A stretch of 64,000 nucleotides of DNA from Patescibacteria group bacterium. GTDB lineage: Bacteria > Patescibacteriota > Patescibacteriia > 2-12-FULL-57-11. The DNA lies in contig SCUL01000002.1 in the NCBI GenBank assembly GCA_004297205.1, forward strand, positions 722,893 through 786,892. Direction: 5' to 3'. Positions 5,797 through 50,173 of this stretch are shown piece by piece. Each line of letters opens with the position of its first letter. Positions within the stretch are counted from its first letter, which is position 1. Made by a program: the position numbers and the translations under genes. The notes under the pieces were generated by a model, which saw only the letters and a list, made by a program, of their open reading frames with translations, ran no database searches and was not told the DNA's origin.

Positions 5797-6207
5797 ATGT
5801 TCAAGCCTGCTGCACGCCCTGAATCCGCCAACAACGACACGGTTATTGCCGCCGGCGTCAAAGTCGAGGGTGATTTCACGTCGGCCGGCAACATCATCAT
5901 CGACGGCGAAGTCTCCGGTACGCTGCGCACCGACATGGATCTCGTGGTCGGCCCCGAAGCCAAGATCACGGCGAACGTCACGGCCCGCAATGCCCGCATC
6001 GCCGGCGAAGTCCACGGAAACCTGTCGGTCAGCGAGCGCGCCGAACTTTCGGCCACGGCCAAGATCTCCGGCGACATCCAGGCGCGCATCCTCGTGATGG
6101 AGGCGGGCGCGGTGTTGAACGGCCGCTGCGCCATGGGCGCCGAGGCGGCCCCGGTCCATATCCCGACCCCCGTTCTGCGCAATCGTCCCGTGAAAGCGGA
6201 ATCTTGA
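5797..6207 (+). CDS. bactofilin family cytoskeletal protein
   Basis: Repetitive beta-helical signature (IIIDGEVSGTL, ITANVTARNARIAGEVHGNLSV) typical of DUF583/bactofilin. Start moved to internal ATG 5797 because the longer ORF overlaps the kinase gene. Confidence 0.7.
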   Translation: MFKPAARPESANNDTVIAAGVKVEGDFTSAGNIIIDGEVSGTLRTDMDLVVGPEAKITANVTARNARIAGEVHGNLSVSERAELSATAKISGDIQARILVMEAGAVLNGRCAMGAEAAPVHIPTPVLRNRPVKAES

Positions 6208-6980
6208 TGTACCAATACGTCTACGACGCCGCACTCTCCGACAAGCGGCATCATCTGGCGCTGACGGCCATCGAGAACCGGCTCACCGACCTGGGCATCC
6301 AGGGAAGGATCGACCGGCTCTCCTTGTTTAAGAATGTCGCCGAGTCCATCGAGGAAGGCGTCCGGCGCGGCGTGACCACGGTCGTGGCGGTCGGCAACGA
6401 CGACACCGTGAAAAAGGTCATGGACGCCGTGCCGCAGTTCGCCGTGACGATGGGCGTGATTCCGATCGGCAAACCCAGCAAGATCGCCCGGCTCTTGGGC
6501 GTGCCCGAGGGCATCGCCGCCTGCGACGTGCTCAGCGCCCGGCTCACCCAGACGCTTGACATCGGGCGCGTGAACGGCCATCATTTCCTCGCCGCGCTGA
6601 GCGTGCCGGCCGGGGCGGTGACCTTGGACTGCGAAGGGCAGTACCGCGTCACGGCGCCGCCGCGCGGACCGGTGCACGTCTGCAACATGACGCCGCTCGA
6701 GACCCTGCTCGACGAAGACGCCGCGCCGATCCACCAGGCGGACCCCTCCGACGGCCTGCTGGAGGCGGTCATCCCGGCACGCCGGGGCATCTTCCGGAGT
6801 GGCGAGGGCGGCAGCAAGACCGTGCTCAACCTGCGGCGCCTCACGATCCGCGCCGAGCGGCCGTTCACCTACGTCGTGGACGGACGCAGTCACTCGGCAC
6901 AGCGCGCCGAAGTAGATGTCCTGCCGGGACGGCTGAAAGTCATCGTCGGGCGGAATCGATTGTTTCGAGTTCCTACGTAA
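6204..6980 (+). CDS. diacylglycerol-kinase-catalytic-domain family lipid kinase (YegS-like), possibly degenerate
   Basis: DAGK_cat-like N-terminus with VVAVGNDDTVKKVMDAV in place of the canonical GGDGT loop. Has an ATGA overlap with the bactofilin stop. Confidence 0.5.
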   Translation: MMYQYVYDAALSDKRHHLALTAIENRLTDLGIQGRIDRLSLFKNVAESIEEGVRRGVTTVVAVGNDDTVKKVMDAVPQFAVTMGVIPIGKPSKIARLLGVPEGIAACDVLSARLTQTLDIGRVNGHHFLAALSVPAGAVTLDCEGQYRVTAPPRGPVHVCNMTPLETLLDEDAAPIHQADPSDGLLEAVIPARRGIFRSGEGGSKTVLNLRRLTIRAERPFTYVVDGRSHSAQRAEVDVLPGRLKVIVGRNRLFRVPT

Positions 6981-6984
6981 ATAC

Positions 6985-7043
6985 GGGCCGGTGGCGGAAC
7001 TGGTATACCTGCCTGCCGGCAGGCAGGCGCGCACGTTTGAGGG
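6985..7043 (+). repeat. duplicated 5' half (nt 1 to about 38) of the downstream tRNA-Leu(GAG), interrupted by a 20-nt perfect palindrome
   Basis: GGGCCGGTGGCGGAACTGGTATAC + CCTGCCTGCCGGCAGGCAGG + CGCGCACGTTTGAGGG matches tRNA positions 1-24 and 25-38 of the intact gene at 7279-7363. The copy ends in the anticodon loop, 3 nt before the GIY-YIG ATG. Confidence 0.8.
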
Positions 7044-7046
7044 AAC

Positions 7047-7277
7047 ATGCCTTACTTCGTCTACGCCCTGCAAAGTGAGAAGGACGGCCGTCTCTATATC
7101 GGCATGACGAGAGACGTGCAGAAACGTTTGTCGCAGCACAATGCGGGTAAGACCCAATCGACTCGCTTCTATCGTCCCTACGTCCTTCTGCGTTTTGCCG
7201 AGGTTCCGAATCGCCTAGCGGCGCGGGCACTCGAAAAAGAGTGGAAGTCGGGGTCTGGGAGAGCGTCCATCAAATAA
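7047..7277 (+). CDS. small GIY-YIG nuclease family protein (YhbQ/COG2827-like)
   Basis: 76 aa with FVYAL...GRLYIGMTRDVQKRLSQHN matching the GIY...YIG...R...H(N) catalytic core. The stop codon is 1 nt before tRNA-Leu. Confidence 0.8.
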   Translation: MPYFVYALQSEKDGRLYIGMTRDVQKRLSQHNAGKTQSTRFYRPYVLLRFAEVPNRLAARALEKEWKSGSGRASIK

Positions 7278-7278
7278 T

Positions 7279-7363
7279 GGGCCGGTGGCGGAACTGGTAT
7301 ACGCGCACGTTTGAGGGGCGTGTGCCGCAAGGCTTGAGGGTTCGAGTCCCTCTCGGCCCACCA
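7279..7363 (+). tRNA. tRNA-Leu(GAG), type II with long variable arm, CCA encoded
   Basis: Manual fold: acceptor GGGCCGG/TCGGCCC, anticodon stem CACGT/GCGTG, loop TTGAGGG (anticodon GAG), variable arm GCC-GCAA-GGC, T-arm GAGGG-TTCGAGT-CCCTC. Length 85 nt. Confidence 0.85.
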
Positions 7364-7372
7364 GAAAAGGCG

Positions 7373-7402
7373 TCTCATGCGAGGCGTCTTTTCTTTTTGC
7401 GG
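7373..7402 (+). terminator. putative terminator after tRNA-Leu
   Basis: CGTCTC-ATGC-GAGGCG hairpin (one G:U pair) followed by TCTTTTCTTTTT. Confidence 0.35.
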
Positions 7403-7462
7403 CGTCCGGACGTTGCCTGAGGTGCGCCGCGGGAGTATCCTGAACGTGGAGGACGCGGGCCT

Positions 7463-7538
7463 GGGCTCGTAGCTCAGCGGTTAGAGCGTCTCGTTTACAC
7501 CGAGAAGGTCCTCCGTTCGAATCGGAGCGGGCCCACCA
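7463..7538 (+). tRNA. tRNA-Val(TAC), CCA encoded
   Basis: Manual fold: acceptor GGGCTCG/CGGGCCC, D-arm GCTC..GAGC, anticodon stem TCTCG/CGAGA, loop TTTACAC (anticodon TAC), T-arm CTCCG-TTCGAAT-CGGAG. Length 76 nt. Confidence 0.85.
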
Positions 7539-7553
7539 GAAACATTTCCTTTC

Positions 7554-7793
7554 ATGCGCTATCTCTTCGGCATCCTCGGCATCGTGCTCGGCATGATCCT
7601 CGTCATCAAGTCGGAGTGGTTCTTCACCTTCTTCGGCCGCATCGATTTCGCCGACAAATATCTCGGCACCGAGGGCGGGACGCGCCTCATGTATAAGCTG
7701 ATCGGCATCCTGTTCGTCCTCCTGTCGCTGCTCTACATGACCGGCGGCATCGAAAGTTTCCTGAAAGCGGTCTTCATCCCGGGCGGCGTGTGA
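7554..7793 (+). CDS. small hypothetical membrane protein (2 TM)
   Basis: 79 aa with two hydrophobic helices; no recognisable family. Confidence 0.4.
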   Translation: MRYLFGILGIVLGMILVIKSEWFFTFFGRIDFADKYLGTEGGTRLMYKLIGILFVLLSLLYMTGGIESFLKAVFIPGGV

Positions 7794-45602: not shown

Positions 45603-47027
45603 ATGGCAGAAAACGGCCAAAAACAAGCCAAAAACGATGATGTCGTGATTCCGGTCAAATCCGGTGATCACGTCAGCCTGGTTTCCTTGGGAAACAAGGC
45701 TTTGGCGAAGTCCGTGCCGGCTGCAGCAGGGGACGTAGACAAGGCCGTCTCCCTGCTCGTCCATCCGGACTGGGATGAGGAAAAACGCGCCCGGCTGAAA
45801 CAGCTCGCGCTGTCCTTTTTTTCCGACGTCCGTGACCGCCTGGAACTGCGGGAGGACCTGCAATCGGCCTGGGAGCGGGGCGGCTTGGGCGTTGATGCCG
45901 ACGAGGCGGGGTATATGGTCGGCGTGCTTGGTGCGGTGCGCGACGGGGGATCTCTTCCGGTGCGCCCGGCATCGAAGGTTTCCATGATGCAGCAGCCTTC
46001 CGTGACGACGGCACCGGCCGCGCCTGCCATTGGAGTGAATATTGCCCCTTCAGCCCCAGCGCAGAAAGCGCCGGCTCCCGCCGCTCCGGCACAGATGGTG
46101 GTTGCCCGCTCCGAATTCGCTGGCAAGCGACGCGAGGAGATTTTTGCGGTGCTGGCCAAAGAGATCGTCGACGAGGTCAAACCGCAGCTGGCCGATCCGG
46201 CATTGCATTCCCGGCTGGAAGCGCTGATCGCCACGCGGTTCCGCGGCGTCCGGGATGCCAATGAGGTGCGCGCCCACATGAAGCGCGACGCGGCGCAGGG
46301 CGGCCTCAGCATGACGCCGGCAGAGATCGAGCGTGTCATGACCGTGGTCGAGGACCGCTTCGCCAAAATTTCGAAGGAGCTCCACGCCCAGGAGAAGGGA
46401 TTGGTGATGGAGGGGCTCAAACAGGAGTCCTCCGCCGGCCGCGCCCAGAAGCAGGGGGCGAGCAGCGATCTTCGGGAGTACGAATCCAATCAATGGTACG
46501 AGAAGCGTTTCGAGCGCCAGCCGCAGACGCCGCCTCCGCCCGCACCCAAAGCGCCGCCGGTGCAGGCACCCCCTCCCGCTCCCCCTTCTGCAAGCCTGCC
46601 TGCCGGCAGGCAGGGGGGAGGGAAGCCGCCTGCGGAAGTCGCGGTCGCCGCGCCGCCGGTGCAGGCACCCCGGCCGACCATGCAGGACGCCGAATACCGT
46701 CCCCGGCTGCTCGGCCCCGTTGAGGAGCTCCGCAGCATGACGCTCGACGACTTCCGACGCCTGGCGCGCGATCCTAAGGAAGCGGCGCGCCGCATCCAGG
46801 ATAAAATCCGGCTGCTCGAGGAGGAGGACTACACCCAGCGCGCTGCGGCCATCGCCGCCTGGCGGGGGTCCGTGCCGGTCAAAACGTATCTGGCCGTCAC
46901 GCGCACCATGTTCGACCAGGGAATCGGTCCGGAACAGGCCGTTGCGGCGCAAGGTACGGGCCCGGACGCGCTGACGCTCGAGGAATACAATGCTATAATG
47001 GAGTTGCAGAATTCCTTGAGATACTAG
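45603..47027 (+). CDS. hypothetical protein with Pro/Ala-rich low-complexity region; contains the 20-nt palindrome in-frame
   Basis: 474 aa. PPPPAPKAPPVQAPPPAPPSASLPAGRQGGGKPPAEVAVAAPPVQAPRP. The CCTGCCTGCCGGCAGGCAGG palindrome at 46595-46614 encodes LPAGRQ. Confidence 0.45.
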   Translation: MAENGQKQAKNDDVVIPVKSGDHVSLVSLGNKALAKSVPAAAGDVDKAVSLLVHPDWDEEKRARLKQLALSFFSDVRDRLELREDLQSAWERGGLGVDADEAGYMVGVLGAVRDGGSLPVRPASKVSMMQQPSVTTAPAAPAIGVNIAPSAPAQKAPAPAAPAQMVVARSEFAGKRREEIFAVLAKEIVDEVKPQLADPALHSRLEALIATRFRGVRDANEVRAHMKRDAAQGGLSMTPAEIERVMTVVEDRFAKISKELHAQEKGLVMEGLKQESSAGRAQKQGASSDLREYESNQWYEKRFERQPQTPPPPAPKAPPVQAPPPAPPSASLPAGRQGGGKPPAEVAVAAPPVQAPRPTMQDAEYRPRLLGPVEELRSMTLDDFRRLARDPKEAARRIQDKIRLLEEEDYTQRAAAIAAWRGSVPVKTYLAVTRTMFDQGIGPEQAVAAQGTGPDALTLEEYNAIMELQNSLRY

Positions 47028-47459
47028 ATGCCAGGACAGTACACGGTGCCGCAATTCATCGACGTCGAGGACAAGATTCTGGGTCCGCTGACGACCCGGC
47101 AGTTCGTGATCATCCTCGGCACCTTCGGCGTCGATTTCCTCCTGTACCGGCTGCTGCAATTCGGTTTCTTCCTGCTGATCGGCCTGCCGGTCTTCCTGGC
47201 GGGGATCACGCTGGCCTTTGCGCGCGTCAACGGGCAGCCGTTCCACTTTTTCCTGCTGAATCTGATTCAGACCTACCGCCGTCCGGACGTCCGCGTTTGG
47301 AACAAAGAGCTCTCCGAGGCGGAATTGCGGATGCTCATCAGCCGCCCGCCGCCGCCCGCGCCGCCCGTCAAAGTCCGCAAAGAAGCCCTTACCACCTCGA
47401 AGCTTTCCGAGCTCTCGCTCGTCGTGAACACGGGCGGCGTCTACCGCCCGGAAGACTAG
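47028..47459 (+). CDS. PrgI/VirB3-like small membrane protein
   Basis: YTVPQFIDVEDKILGPLTTRQFVIILG followed by two TM helices matches the PrgI family N-terminal pattern. The ATG abuts the upstream stop. Confidence 0.55.
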   Translation: MPGQYTVPQFIDVEDKILGPLTTRQFVIILGTFGVDFLLYRLLQFGFFLLIGLPVFLAGITLAFARVNGQPFHFFLLNLIQTYRRPDVRVWNKELSEAELRMLISRPPPPAPPVKVRKEALTTSKLSELSLVVNTGGVYRPED

Positions 47460-47592
47460 AACGTCCGCGTATGGCGCATTTCATCGTTAGCAGCTGCGGT
47501 GCTCCCTCAACGTACGCTTTGGTACGTTTCGGTTCGCTCCTCGCTGCTGCCTCGAACTGCGCGCATACCCGGCCGTTCTAGAATCGACTGAT

Positions 47593-48267
47593 ATGGCCAG
47601 CAAAGCCGCCAGCGCAAAGCGTCCCAGCACCCAGCAGTTTTTGGACATCGCCGAAATCAAGGAGGACGTCGTCATCATGAAGGACGGCACGCTCCGGGCG
47701 GTGCTGTTGTGTTCGTCCGTCAACTTCGCCCTGAAGTCGGAAGAGGAGCAGGAGGCCATCATCTCCGCCTACGTCGGCTTCCTGAACGCGCTCGAATACC
47801 CGCTCCAGATCGTGGTGCAGAGCCGGAAGCTGAACGTCGAGGAATACCTGAACCGTCTGTCCGAGGCGCAGCGTACCCAGACTAACGAACTGTTGAAGGC
47901 GCAGATCGCCGACTACCGGCAGTTCGTGTTCGAGCTGATTTCGCTCGGGCAGATCATGAGCAAGCGTTTCTACGTCGTGATTCCGTACGATCCCATGACC
48001 AACAAGCGCAAGGGGTTCTTCGCCCGGATGCGGGAAACGCTCGTGCCGGCGCTCTCGTTGCGGCTGCGCGAAGAGCAGTTCCGCCAGCGGCGCAAGGATT
48101 TGCTGTTGCGCGTCGACAGCGTCGCCTCGAATCTCGGCTCCATGAGCGTCTCCGCCGCCGTGCTCGACACCCAATCGTTGATCGAACTCTATTACACCGC
48201 CTACAACCCGGACGTCGCCGATTCGGAGAAGCTGACCGACGTCGGCAAAATGCGCATCGAAGCCTGA
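47593..48267 (+). CDS. virB4: VirB4/TraC-type N-terminal domain protein (split VirB4, part 1)
   Basis: QQFLDIAEIKEDVVIMKDGTLRAVLLCSSVNFALKSEEEQE matches the VirB4 N-terminal consensus. Stop TGA is 1 nt before the ATG of the ATPase ORF. Confidence 0.6.
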   Translation: MASKAASAKRPSTQQFLDIAEIKEDVVIMKDGTLRAVLLCSSVNFALKSEEEQEAIISAYVGFLNALEYPLQIVVQSRKLNVEEYLNRLSEAQRTQTNELLKAQIADYRQFVFELISLGQIMSKRFYVVIPYDPMTNKRKGFFARMRETLVPALSLRLREEQFRQRRKDLLLRVDSVASNLGSMSVSAAVLDTQSLIELYYTAYNPDVADSEKLTDVGKMRIEA

Positions 48268-48268
48268 T

Positions 48269-50173
48269 ATGGCCTTCCAACCCTTCAAAGCGCTCCGCGG
48301 CAAGCGCGCCCCGATCGATGTCGGCGGCACGCTGGTGACGGACACCGAAGCCAAGAAGAAGATCGCCGTCGAAAGGGAAGCGCTCGAGGAAGAGCGCGTG
48401 TATCGGCGCGGCACCGTCTCCATCAAGGATCTGATCGCTCCGGCGGCGATGAAGGTCGAACCGTCGCACGTGCTGCTCGGCGACATGTACGTGCGCACCA
48501 TCTTCGTCGTGACCTATCCGCGCTACGTTTCCGTGGGGTGGTTCACGCCGATCCTGAATTTGAACCTGATGCTCGACGTGGGCATGTTCTTCTACCCGGT
48601 GAAGGCCCACATCATCCTCAAACAGCTCAAGAACAAGGTCGGTACCATCGAGGCGCAGATCCTTTCGGACGCGGAAAAGGGCGCGCCGCGCGATCCCTTG
48701 CGCGAAACGGCGCTGCGCGACATCGAAAAGCTCCGCGACGACCTGACCCAGGGGATCGAGCATTTCTTCCAATACGCCCTCTACGTCACGATGTACGCCA
48801 AGAGCAAGGAAGAGCTCGACCGTTACACGCAGGATGTGGAGAACATTTTCGGCGGCAAGCTGATCTACAGCAAGAAAGTCTTCTACCAGGCGGAGCAGGG
48901 CTTCAACTCCACGCTCCCGCTCGGCAACGACGAGCTGCAGATCACCTTCAACATGAACAGCTCGCCGATCGCCTCGAGCTTCCCGTTCACCTCGGCCGAC
49001 CTGACGTCGGACAACGGCATTCTCTACGGCATCAACCGCCACAACAATTCACTGATCCTGTTCGACCGTTTCTCGCTGCAGAATGCCAACGCCGTGGTCT
49101 TCGCCACCTCCGGCGCCGGAAAATCGTACGCCGTGAAGCTCGAAGTGCTCCGCTCGCTGATGCTCGGCACCGACGTGCTGATCATCGACCCGGAAATGGA
49201 GTACAAGCATCTCTCGGACGCCGTCGGCGGCGCCTACATCAACATTTCGCTGGCTTCCGATTCCAAGATCAATCCGTTCGAGCTGCCGCGCCCGGTCGGG
49301 GAGCAGGTTTCGGTCGAGGACATCATCCGGAGCGCCGTCATTACATTGAAAGGCCTGATCCGCCTCATGCTCGGCGGCAAAATAACGACGGCCGAAGACT
49401 CGATCATCGACCGCGCGCTTCTTGAAACGTACGCCAAAAAAGACATCGTGCCGGGCGCGGACCTGTCGCGCGTCGAGCCGCCGATCTTCCAGGATTTCCA
49501 GGAAGTACTCCAGGGTATGGAAGGCGCGGGCGACCTGGTGGAGCGGCTCAAGAAATACACGGAAGGCACCTTCGCCGGTCTCATCAACTCGCCGACCACG
49601 GTCGACATCCGGAATTCCCTCGTCATCTTCTCGGTCCGCGACCTGGAAGACGAACTGCGGCCGATGGCCATCTACACCATCGTCAACTTCATCTGGAACG
49701 TGGTGCGCTCCGAGCGCAAGCGGCGCATCCTCGTCATCGACGAAGCCTGGTGGCTCATGCAGCATGAGGATTCGGCCAAGTTCATCTTCGCGCTGGTGAA
49801 GCGCTGCCGCAAATACTACCTGGGCGTCACCACCATCACCCAGGACGTCAACGACTTCCTGACGTCCCCCTACGGCCAGGCCATCGTCACCAACTCCTCG
49901 CTGCAGATGCTTTTGAAGCAGTCGCCGGCCTCGATCGAGCTGATCGCCAAAACCTTCCTGCTGACGCAAGGGGAGAAATATCTGCTGCTCGAGAGCGGGG
50001 TCGGTGAAGGCATTTTCTTCGCCGGACAGAAACACGCCGCCATCAAGATCGTGGCCTCGTACGCCGAAGACCAGGTCATCACCTCCGACCCGCGGCAGCT
50101 GCTCGAAATCGAGCAGGCCAAGAAGGAATTCCAACAGCAGTCCGCCGCCGCGGAAGGCGCTCCCGCCGTATGA
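48269..50173 (+). CDS. virB4: VirB4/TrbE-family type IV secretion ATPase (part 2, ATPase domain)
   Basis: Walker A VVFATSGAGKSYAV and Walker B RRILVIDEAWWLM. 634 aa. Confidence 0.85.
   Translation: MAFQPFKALRGKRAPIDVGGTLVTDTEAKKKIAVEREALEEERVYRRGTVSIKDLIAPAAMKVEPSHVLLGDMYVRTIFVVTYPRYVSVGWFTPILNLNLMLDVGMFFYPVKAHIILKQLKNKVGTIEAQILSDAEKGAPRDPLRETALRDIEKLRDDLTQGIEHFFQYALYVTMYAKSKEELDRYTQDVENIFGGKLIYSKKVFYQAEQGFNSTLPLGNDELQITFNMNSSPIASSFPFTSADLTSDNGILYGINRHNNSLILFDRFSLQNANAVVFATSGAGKSYAVKLEVLRSLMLGTDVLIIDPEMEYKHLSDAVGGAYINISLASDSKINPFELPRPVGEQVSVEDIIRSAVITLKGLIRLMLGGKITTAEDSIIDRALLETYAKKDIVPGADLSRVEPPIFQDFQEVLQGMEGAGDLVERLKKYTEGTFAGLINSPTTVDIRNSLVIFSVRDLEDELRPMAIYTIVNFIWNVVRSERKRRILVIDEAWWLMQHEDSAKFIFALVKRCRKYYLGVTTITQDVNDFLTSPYGQAIVTNSSLQMLLKQSPASIELIAKTFLLTQGEKYLLLESGVGEGIFFAGQKHAAIKIVASYAEDQVITSDPRQLLEIEQAKKEFQQQSAAAEGAPAV

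Follow-up and report, generated by a model that had tools for sequence, protein, structure and literature searches.

The window, by which we mean the whole 64,000-nt stretch of DNA analyzed here, carries two identical copies of a perfect 20-nt palindrome, CCTGCCTGCCGGCAGGCAGG, hereafter referred to as PAL. Copy 1 (7008–7027) lies in a partial copy of a tRNA gene. Directly after the stop codon of a DAGK-like open reading frame (ORF; 6204–6980), a 5′ pseudo-copy of tRNA-Leu(GAG) begins on the forward strand with tRNA positions 1–23 (6985–7007), is interrupted by PAL, continues with positions 24–39 (7028–7043), and ends in the anticodon loop, 3 nt ahead of the start codon of a forward-strand gene for a 76-aa GIY-YIG nuclease (7047–7277). 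The intact tRNA-Leu(GAG) (7279–7363, forward strand; identified by ARAGORN, 46 bits with the Rfam tRNA model) begins 1 nt after the stop codon of the nuclease gene. The pseudo-tRNA keeps the ancestral upstream flank and matches positions 1–39 of the intact tRNA with zero mismatches, including 16/16 bases downstream of PAL, and the 20-nt insert is the sole interruption, with neither target duplication nor base loss. The first-pass annotation had correctly named the insert as the only difference between the half-tRNA and the intact gene but had placed it between the D-arm and the anticodon stem. PAL in fact separates tRNA position 23 from position 24, where the D-loop ends and the 3′ strand of the D-stem is about to begin, and so sits inside the D-arm, at the D-loop/D-stem junction. 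Rfam models applied across 6800–7600 returned two tRNAs only and left the pseudo-tRNA/PAL region uncovered, and a search of the surroundings of copy 1 for promoter-like and terminator-like sites was negative.

Relatives of this locus were located through the upstream DAGK-like gene, whose proteins are 94%, 84%, and 81% identical to that of the window. All three relatives (loci L240, L242, L244, and L246) have a single intact tRNA-Leu(GAG) right after the DAGK-like gene, and both PAL and the GIY-YIG gene are absent from their tRNA-Leu locus. The tRNA of L246 and that of the closest relatives (L240/L242) are identical to that of the window, and the L244 copy differs at a few bases. Compared with these cassette-free relatives, the window lineage has therefore gained 294 nt. 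PAL accounts for 20 nt of this, and the remaining 274 nt comprise the GIY-YIG gene together with the repeated tRNA positions 1–39.

Both copies of PAL, at 7008–7027 and 46595–46614, are exact, as the first-pass annotation had reported, and no third match was found in the window when up to 3 mismatches were allowed. As the window has a GC content of 65.6% and perfect 20-nt palindromes arise at 0.38 per Markov shuffle, a single one is unremarkable; two identical ones are rare, and 0/100 dinucleotide shuffles of the window contained two PAL matches, in agreement with the annotation's view that the pair exceeds chance. A check for longer duplicated segments, which the annotation had also raised, found no similarity between the flanks of the two copies (60 nt on each side, both orientations), so the pair does not stem from a segmental duplication. 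Both copies were also recovered in independently assembled Logan contigs from run SRR8426588. Read from the sequence, PAL contains no stop codon in any frame, and the predicted fold of its single-stranded form is a hairpin of −8 kcal/mol with 8 bp in the stem and 4 nt in the loop.

Copy 2 is an orphan and lies, as already noted in the first-pass annotation, about 39 kb away within an unrelated coding sequence. There it encodes (S)LPAGRQ(G), in frame, within a Pro/Ala-rich linker of a 474-aa protein with no known domain, the product of a forward-strand ORF (45603–47027). The nearest homologs of this protein lack about 7 codons at the PAL linker; because they are just 70–72% identical, the DNA alignment gives a gap of ~18–21 nt at the expected empty site and not a clean junction. 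Copy 2 thus fits with the in-frame orphan PALs described below. It is bracketed by a 22-bp exact direct repeat, GCGCCGCCGGTGCAGGCACCCC (encoding APPVQAP), at 46551–46572 and 46650–46671, with a 99-nt period, and the codons for "PVQ" in the second repeat copy are missing in the homologs. The gene lies upstream of PrgI-like, TraC-like, and VirB4/TraG-type ATPase genes (47028–50173); Patescibacteria typically have such a type IV secretion or competence-like cluster.

The ortholog of this ORF in a cassette-free relative (L248, GCA_964355835.1) contains an in-frame repeat of ~80 nt twice, at aa 149 and aa 328, and one of these two copies occupies the same linker that holds PAL in the window. The repeat forms two hairpins (ccccccctt-CAC-aaggggggg and ctccctctt-GYG-aagagggag) and encodes the peptide LPPSPPSQGG.KPE.SLPL.KREPEGV. 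It represents a second element family in these Patescibacteria, resembling the Rickettsia palindromic elements (RPEs).

We scanned one genome per GTDB species and found exact PAL in at least 120 species genomes. Carriers within the Patescibacteria include Parcu-, Sacchari-, Uhr-, Davies-, Doudna-, Wolfe-, and Peregrinibacteria as well as WWE3. Others belong to the Bacteroidota, Omnitrophota, Planctomycetota, Thermodesulfovibrionales, Bdellovibrio-like and "delta" lineages, and uncultured Gammaproteobacteria, and among the Bacteroidota are cultured isolates; the cultured carriers include Winogradskyella echinorum KCTC 22026, Flagellimonas yonaguniensis, and Longitalea luteola. Many of the loci have a GC content of 30–45%; by base-composition arithmetic, chance would give ~3 or fewer matches across the whole GTDB collection, nearly all of them in high-GC genomes. 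In IMG/VR, PAL was present in 35 viral-contig stretches, compared to 0 and 0 for two composition-matched control palindromes (one with the halves swapped, the other a CCGT/ACGG version). A BLAST search for exact PAL returned no match in 7.3 Gb of plasmid records and none in 2.3 Gb of phage records.

Among the GTDB loci, no conserved flanks surround PAL, so the 20-mer itself is the unit. PAL thus belongs to a family of tiny hairpin DNA insertions that are identical across many phyla, which bears out the short palindromic repeat family proposed in the first-pass annotation on a scale beyond what the window alone could show. We found no description of the PAL sequence or of its association with GIY-YIG genes in the openly searchable literature, and the family is apparently undescribed.

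To sample from the side of the nuclease, we chose 80 metagenomic loci by similarity of the GIY-YIG protein alone, of which 77 could be evaluated. Within 200 nt upstream of the GIY-YIG gene, an exact PAL was found at 38/77 loci and a copy with up to 3 edits at 14/77; a PAL was present downstream only at 3/77, and the other 22/77 had none. The tie to the adjacent GIY-YIG gene that the first-pass annotation had suggested is therefore tight (52/77 loci), and PAL is associated with GIY-YIG cassettes. Their PALs lie within a partial tRNA copy with an intact tRNA just downstream, and the layout is constant: a 5′ partial tRNA with PAL, the GIY-YIG gene, and the intact tRNA, the tRNAs being those for Arg, Met, Leu, Lys, Asn, Phe, Gly, and His. 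Mirror cassettes, in which a tRNA and the GIY-YIG gene are followed by a 3′ partial tRNA with PAL in the T-loop, also exist. A survey that started from PAL placed at least 14 of ~125 copies in or beside partial tRNA copies and a GIY-YIG gene within 150 nt at 6 loci, and all-against-all clustering of 2863 ORFs within 2.5 kb showed GIY-YIG to be the sole protein family that recurs near PAL.

At each of the 31 cassettes that could be resolved, the left tRNA match ends at position n and the right match resumes at n+1, meaning that PAL is inserted exactly and without target-site duplication; neither duplication nor deletion was seen in any of the 31. Most insertions are at the 3′ junction of the D-loop, and the remainder are on the 5′ side of the D-loop, at the junction of the anticodon stem and loop, or in the T-loop of 3′-partial copies. 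Depending on the lineage, tRNA-Leu(GAG) carries PAL at 14/15, 15/16, or 23/24, which indicates more than one independent insertion event. The GIY-YIG ORFs beside exact PALs have a median identity of 61% (nt) and 53% (aa), and PAL next to them is invariant; it must then be either strongly constrained or repeatedly recopied.

Several cassettes depart from this simple layout. At four loci (L134, L152, L159, and L148), 2–3 tandem units of pseudo-tRNA, PAL, and GIY-YIG gene precede the intact tRNA, an arrangement that unequal recombination between tRNA-derived repeats could produce. One IMG/VR contig (L229, 2239–2330) contains a full-length initiator-like tRNA-Met with PAL in its variable loop, which ARAGORN calls as a 92-nt tRNA and which may be a functional tRNA with an extra arm or a pseudogene; a truncated version of it is found at L206. 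At L041 (860–900), a longer GC-rich palindrome, cccgcccgtaccgaacgggtacgttcgggcgggg, sits at D-loop position 21/22 of a tRNA-Val pseudo-copy with a GIY-YIG remnant adjoining.

The 76-aa protein of the window matches the Pfam GIY-YIG domain (PF01541, E = 8.5e-15) and consists of the bare catalytic domain, of the UPF0213/SLX1-like type, without a DNA-binding domain. Profile matches were obtained to PDB 1zg2 (3e-10) and also to 1ywl (UPF0213), and to SLX1 at 8e-6; the closest solved relatives are thus the UPF0213 proteins BH0048 and EF2693, followed by the SLX1 structure-specific endonucleases. Its catalytic residues are intact, and in an alignment of six cassette proteins, Y6, Y17, R27, H31, and E63 are invariant. 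SLX1 cleaves branched and stem-loop DNA near the junction. An NCBIfam search gave no match over the cutoff, and a role as a defense-system component was rejected, as the only matches, to PDC-S14, are partial and N-terminal.

Members of the GIY-YIG family also occur in other settings. At L095 (4700–5250), an ORF of the same family lies within an insertion in a 23S rRNA gene that contains no PAL, indicating that the family also invades rRNA genes. A subgroup (L155, L173, L174, L178, L189, L193, L200, and L202) has neither tRNA nor PAL; its members share the motif ccccgttagag, which falls at the 3′ end of the preceding ORF, ~15 nt ahead of the GIY-YIG start codon, and they represent another type of insertion context.

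PAL is not the only insert in the pseudo-tRNAs. Others of 19–20 nt were found at such sites, e.g., CCTGTCTACCGACAGGTAGA, TCCGCCAGAGGCGGACAGG, and TTTACCTCCCGAAGGGAGG. For comparison, 14 distinct insert types were picked from the aligner output, three of them oriented by reverse complement. All 14 consist of a perfect 6-bp stem, a 3–4-nt loop, and a 4-nt tail (CAGG, TAAA, TAGA, or CAAG; consensus YARR), and compensatory changes, counted by script across these types, are present at 4 of the 6 stem pairs. PAL is the commonest member of this hairpin-plus-tail family of 19–20 nt, with a GC-rich 6-bp stem, and a special case in that its loop and tail prolong the stem into a perfect palindrome.

Orphan PALs are dispersed well beyond tRNA genes, and most have no GIY-YIG gene within 8 kb. 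Some are nested within another PAL (L020, L044, and L147), and others occupy the center or the junction of pre-existing inverted repeats. Compared to control sites, orphan sites are more often in the loops of hairpins with stems of at least 5 bp (18% vs 8%, p = 9e-5), an enrichment of ~2.5-fold, and the insertion is often exactly at the junction. PAL is therefore a discrete unit that is inserted exactly and that favors loops and stem-loop junctions. A fixed target motif was rejected, since no more than a weak A-N-A| bias is seen in the flanking sequence. The idea that PAL represents two abutted transposon ends with the cargo elsewhere was likewise rejected, as half-sites are rare and unpaired, and no cargo was found between PAL halves.

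Some orphans are flanked by identical direct repeats of 7–14 nt, unlike the duplication-free insertions in tRNA copies. Many orphans lie inside tandem-repeat arrays with 7–14-nt units (L047, L082, L084, L103, L207, L213, and L223; also L052, L060, L205, and L228). On one 29.5-kb IMG/VR contig (L225, L232, and L233), PAL is present at least 6 times, and the ~28 kb examined contain no GIY-YIG gene. Some PALs on this contig are found within a larger unit, ccatcctcgcggttttTG-PAL-CGAGGGTGGG, in both orientations, and here another repeat seems to have picked up PAL, the two then being amplified as one.

In coding sequences, PAL lands in frame inside essential proteins. The hosts include FtsK, an RmlB-like dehydratase, S6, ScpB, GatB, and a PMT-family protein, and the Pfam matches of these proteins span the insert. 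The LPAGRQ frame is used in 8/8 coding-sequence examples examined and in copy 2 of the window. One extra G/C flanks the in-frame PALs, giving an insert of 21 nt in coding sequence; the class with G-PAL-G or C-PAL-C accounts for 34/125 copies. The first-pass annotation had considered in-frame insertions of the kind known from Rickettsia palindromic elements, and FtsK, S6, GatB, ScpB, and others now provide examples. For the PMT-like proteins of CPR genomes at L045 and L073, a shared ancestral insertion was rejected, since no homology was detectable around PAL.

Taken together, these data suggest that PAL is probably an independently mobile unit. Somewhat less firmly, and with the balance only just in its favor, we read the hairpin-plus-tail units in general as miniature non-autonomous mobile insertions tied to the SLX1/UPF0213-type GIY-YIG cassettes in tRNA genes. 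That the GIY-YIG nuclease is the mobilizing enzyme is a credible idea to which we give slightly less than even chances.

We hypothesize that the unit would move as a discrete hairpin, probably single-stranded, and that its targets would be transiently single-stranded loops and stem-loop junctions such as those in the arms of tRNA genes, in terminators, and in PAL's own loop. A structure-specific GIY-YIG nuclease would supply the nicks, host repair or ligation would seal them, and insertion of a hairpin in this way would leave no target duplication. GIY-YIG enzymes cleave DNA by hydrolysis and are not known to transfer or join strands, which counts against this scheme unless ligation by the host completes the insertion. 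Insertions would be retained only where they are harmless, in redundant tRNA copies, intergenic DNA, or disordered linkers. Copy 1 would be an example of the hallmark insertion of these cassettes, which is located in their redundant pseudo-tRNA arm. There, PAL may both kill the surplus tRNA copy and split a direct repeat through which the nuclease gene would otherwise be lost; we propose that PAL-bearing cassettes persist for these reasons. Copy 2, in turn, may have survived because ~21 nt add a harmless LPAGRQG-type peptide to a disordered linker.

The specific route of single-strand hairpin cutting and insertion is doubtful, and we put it forward as one candidate scheme. Slightly better placed, if still tentative, is the broader proposal of a new mode of DNA mobility, in which tRNA-housed SLX1/UPF0213-like GIY-YIG nucleases would, in many phyla, drive hairpin-plus-tail units of 19–20 nt into stem-loop junctions without duplicating the target. 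No smaller transposable unit would then be known, and the process would reshape tRNA loci and leave LPAGRQG insertions of 7 residues in essential proteins. Several observations weigh against the favored reading. The enrichment of orphans in hairpin loops is modest, at ~2.5-fold. Most orphans are farther than 8 kb from any GIY-YIG gene, and 22/77 cassettes are without PAL. A 76-aa domain conserved at ~50% identity would be an odd sole reader of an invariant 20-mer shared across phyla. The 7–14-nt repeats flanking some orphans are not explained by a mechanism without duplication. Finally, the viral contig of 29.5 kb bears at least 6 PALs with no GIY-YIG gene in the ~28 kb examined. PAL may also spread by gene conversion.

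Of the alternatives, the one that best survives is that PAL is not independently mobile and is a cis-acting part of the cassette, traveling by recombination through tRNA homology. It could then serve as a spacer that inactivates the pseudo-tRNA, as a break in the direct repeat, as a 5′-UTR hairpin of the nuclease mRNA, or as a binding site, and orphans would be relics of decayed cassettes or by-products of gene conversion. Such a role would suit the location of PAL 18–51 nt upstream of the GIY-YIG start codon in most cassettes, the tandem arrays at L134 and L152 that repeat pseudo-tRNA, PAL, and nuclease gene as one unit, and the less decayed appearance of cassette PALs compared to secondary orphan copies. 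However, the same tRNA species carries PAL at different positions by lineage, orphans are found in coding sequences, tandem repeats, and hairpins without tRNA-derived flanks, and PALs are nested in PALs. Moreover, a generic hairpin or spacer requires no invariant sequence, and other hairpin types fill the same place. On this evidence, we judge the cis-acting explanation unlikely.

Independent mobility must also be weighed against classical homing, in which the nuclease would cut the cassette-free tRNA allele and PAL would be its recognition site or a repair scar that marks or immunizes the cut site. A precedent is T4 SegB (PMC2330249), a homing enzyme of the GIY-YIG type found among clustered tRNA genes, and both the presence or absence of the cassette at a conserved tRNA locus and the recurrent structural position of PAL in the tRNA gene would be expected from homing. 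The intact tRNA beside the nuclease gene, however, is identical to the tRNA of the cassette-free relatives L240/L242 and L246. This leaves the invaded allele with a target that is not interrupted and argues against a simple homing-site scar; the suggestion in the first-pass annotation that PAL is a recognition or repair footprint of the GIY-YIG nuclease is not borne out. A bare catalytic domain of 76 aa with no DNA-binding domain is not the expected homing enzyme either, repair scars in different phyla would not all consist of a single invariant 20-mer, and orphans are found far from any tRNA. We therefore regard homing as improbable.

Less probable still is that PAL is a REP-like motif that selection maintains because it benefits the host, either as a hairpin that stabilizes or terminates transcripts or as a site bound by a conserved host protein. 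The invariance of PAL amid divergent surroundings would be in line with selection, as would the placement of some copies next to tRNA 3′ ends or terminators (L104). Yet copies are found in pseudo-tRNAs, in frame in coding sequences, and nested in each other, copy 1 has no terminator-like or promoter-like site around it, the copy number per genome appears low, and decayed copies are common; the lack of any exact match in the plasmid and phage records further indicates that PAL is not a general bacterial signal. Chance, segmental duplication, or an assembly or adapter artifact, which could be entertained given that palindromes are commoner at high GC and that carriers are mostly metagenome-assembled genomes, is already refuted as the source of the two copies by the shuffles and the zero matches of the control palindromes, the unrelated flanks, the second assembly that reproduces both copies, the cultured isolates, the structured positions that PAL takes up in tRNA copies, and its in-frame location in conserved genes.

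If the association with the nuclease is functional, it would assign a testable role and a defined DNA substrate to the widespread, uncharacterized bacterial GIY-YIG proteins of the UPF0213/YhbQ type, and it would represent a nuclease-linked analog of REP/RAYT that works across phyla. We know of no solved mechanism for the in-frame insertion of palindromes, either for RPEs or for mitochondrial GC clusters. With cultured carriers among Flavobacteriia and Chitinophagia isolates and a substrate of 20 nt, the system is experimentally tractable. For annotation, the 20-mer is a precise marker of the pseudo-tRNA/GIY-YIG cassettes, which pipelines probably miscall as tRNA fragments or, as at L229, as unusually long tRNAs.

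Finally, we compared PAL with known systems. The first-pass annotation had likened PAL to REP, dRS3-type, and Rickettsia palindromic elements; membership in these families is not supported, as PAL differs from them in length, sequence, associated gene, and copy behavior. With the REP/RAYT system (REPtrons), it shares a short hairpin with an adjacent conserved tetranucleotide, dispersed copies, a nuclease-type gene flanked by hairpins, and a suspected pairing of non-autonomous and autonomous elements. The partner of PAL, however, is a GIY-YIG protein of the SLX1/UPF0213-like type and that of REP is an HUH Y1 enzyme; no HUH Y1 (RAYT) gene flanked by PALs was present among the recurrent families in the clustering of 2863 ORFs. 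REP carries GTAG, whereas PAL and its relatives have the YARR tail and no GTAG, and PAL also occurs inside genes and pseudo-tRNAs and is identical across phyla, whereas REP is species-specific. REP elements are high-copy and extragenic within a genome; for PAL, few copies per locus were seen, with 2 in the 64 kb of the window and at least 6 in the 29.5-kb contig, and several copies are intragenic. Unlike MITEs, PAL leaves no target duplication (31/31 cassettes), has no cargo between its halves, and no parent IS was found for it.

Rickettsia palindromic elements resemble PAL in being stop-free palindromes that insert in frame in conserved genes and add a short tolerated peptide. They are ~100–150 bp long, confined to Rickettsia, and have no nuclease gene, whereas PAL measures 20 nt (21 in coding sequence), is unrelated in sequence, is tied to tRNA-gene cassettes, and has its hosts among CPR, Bacteroidota, PVC, and other bacteria. 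The "peel-and-paste" elements of the IS200/IS605 family and their PATE derivatives likewise leave no target-site duplication, prefer single-stranded or hairpin targets, and have hairpins recognized together with a neighboring tetranucleotide. For PAL, in contrast, neither TnpA (HUH) nor TnpB was found nearby and no fixed target tetranucleotide was found, and PAL is one hairpin of 19–20 nt where IS200/IS605 elements have two different structured ends.

Free-standing GIY-YIG homing genes (T4 segB) and SLX1 have in common with the cassettes the GIY-YIG domain, an association with tRNA gene regions, and presence/absence polymorphism, the last of which is seen here in the three relatives with an uninterrupted tRNA-Leu locus. 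The cassette protein differs in having just 76 aa and no DNA-binding module. The cassette also duplicates part of the tRNA and keeps an unaltered copy of the target: the destruction of the target in the invaded allele that is typical of homing is not seen, and the pseudo-copy alone is interrupted. We know of no homing enzyme that is accompanied by an invariant 20-nt hairpin. The mobile GC clusters and double-hairpin palindromes of fungal mitochondria are GC-rich, scattered in AT-rich genomes, and sometimes intragenic, and the genomes that carry them also have GIY-YIG homing genes. They are organellar, longer, and more variable than PAL, some have target duplications, and they have no known fixed partnership with a tRNA-embedded nuclease gene.

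PAL thus works most like the REP/RAYT or IS200/IS605 hairpin elements and, in its in-frame insertion, like RPEs, yet it lacks the defining features of each of these families. We regard it as a nuclease-associated miniature palindromic repeat, and there is a real chance that it moves by a new mechanism.
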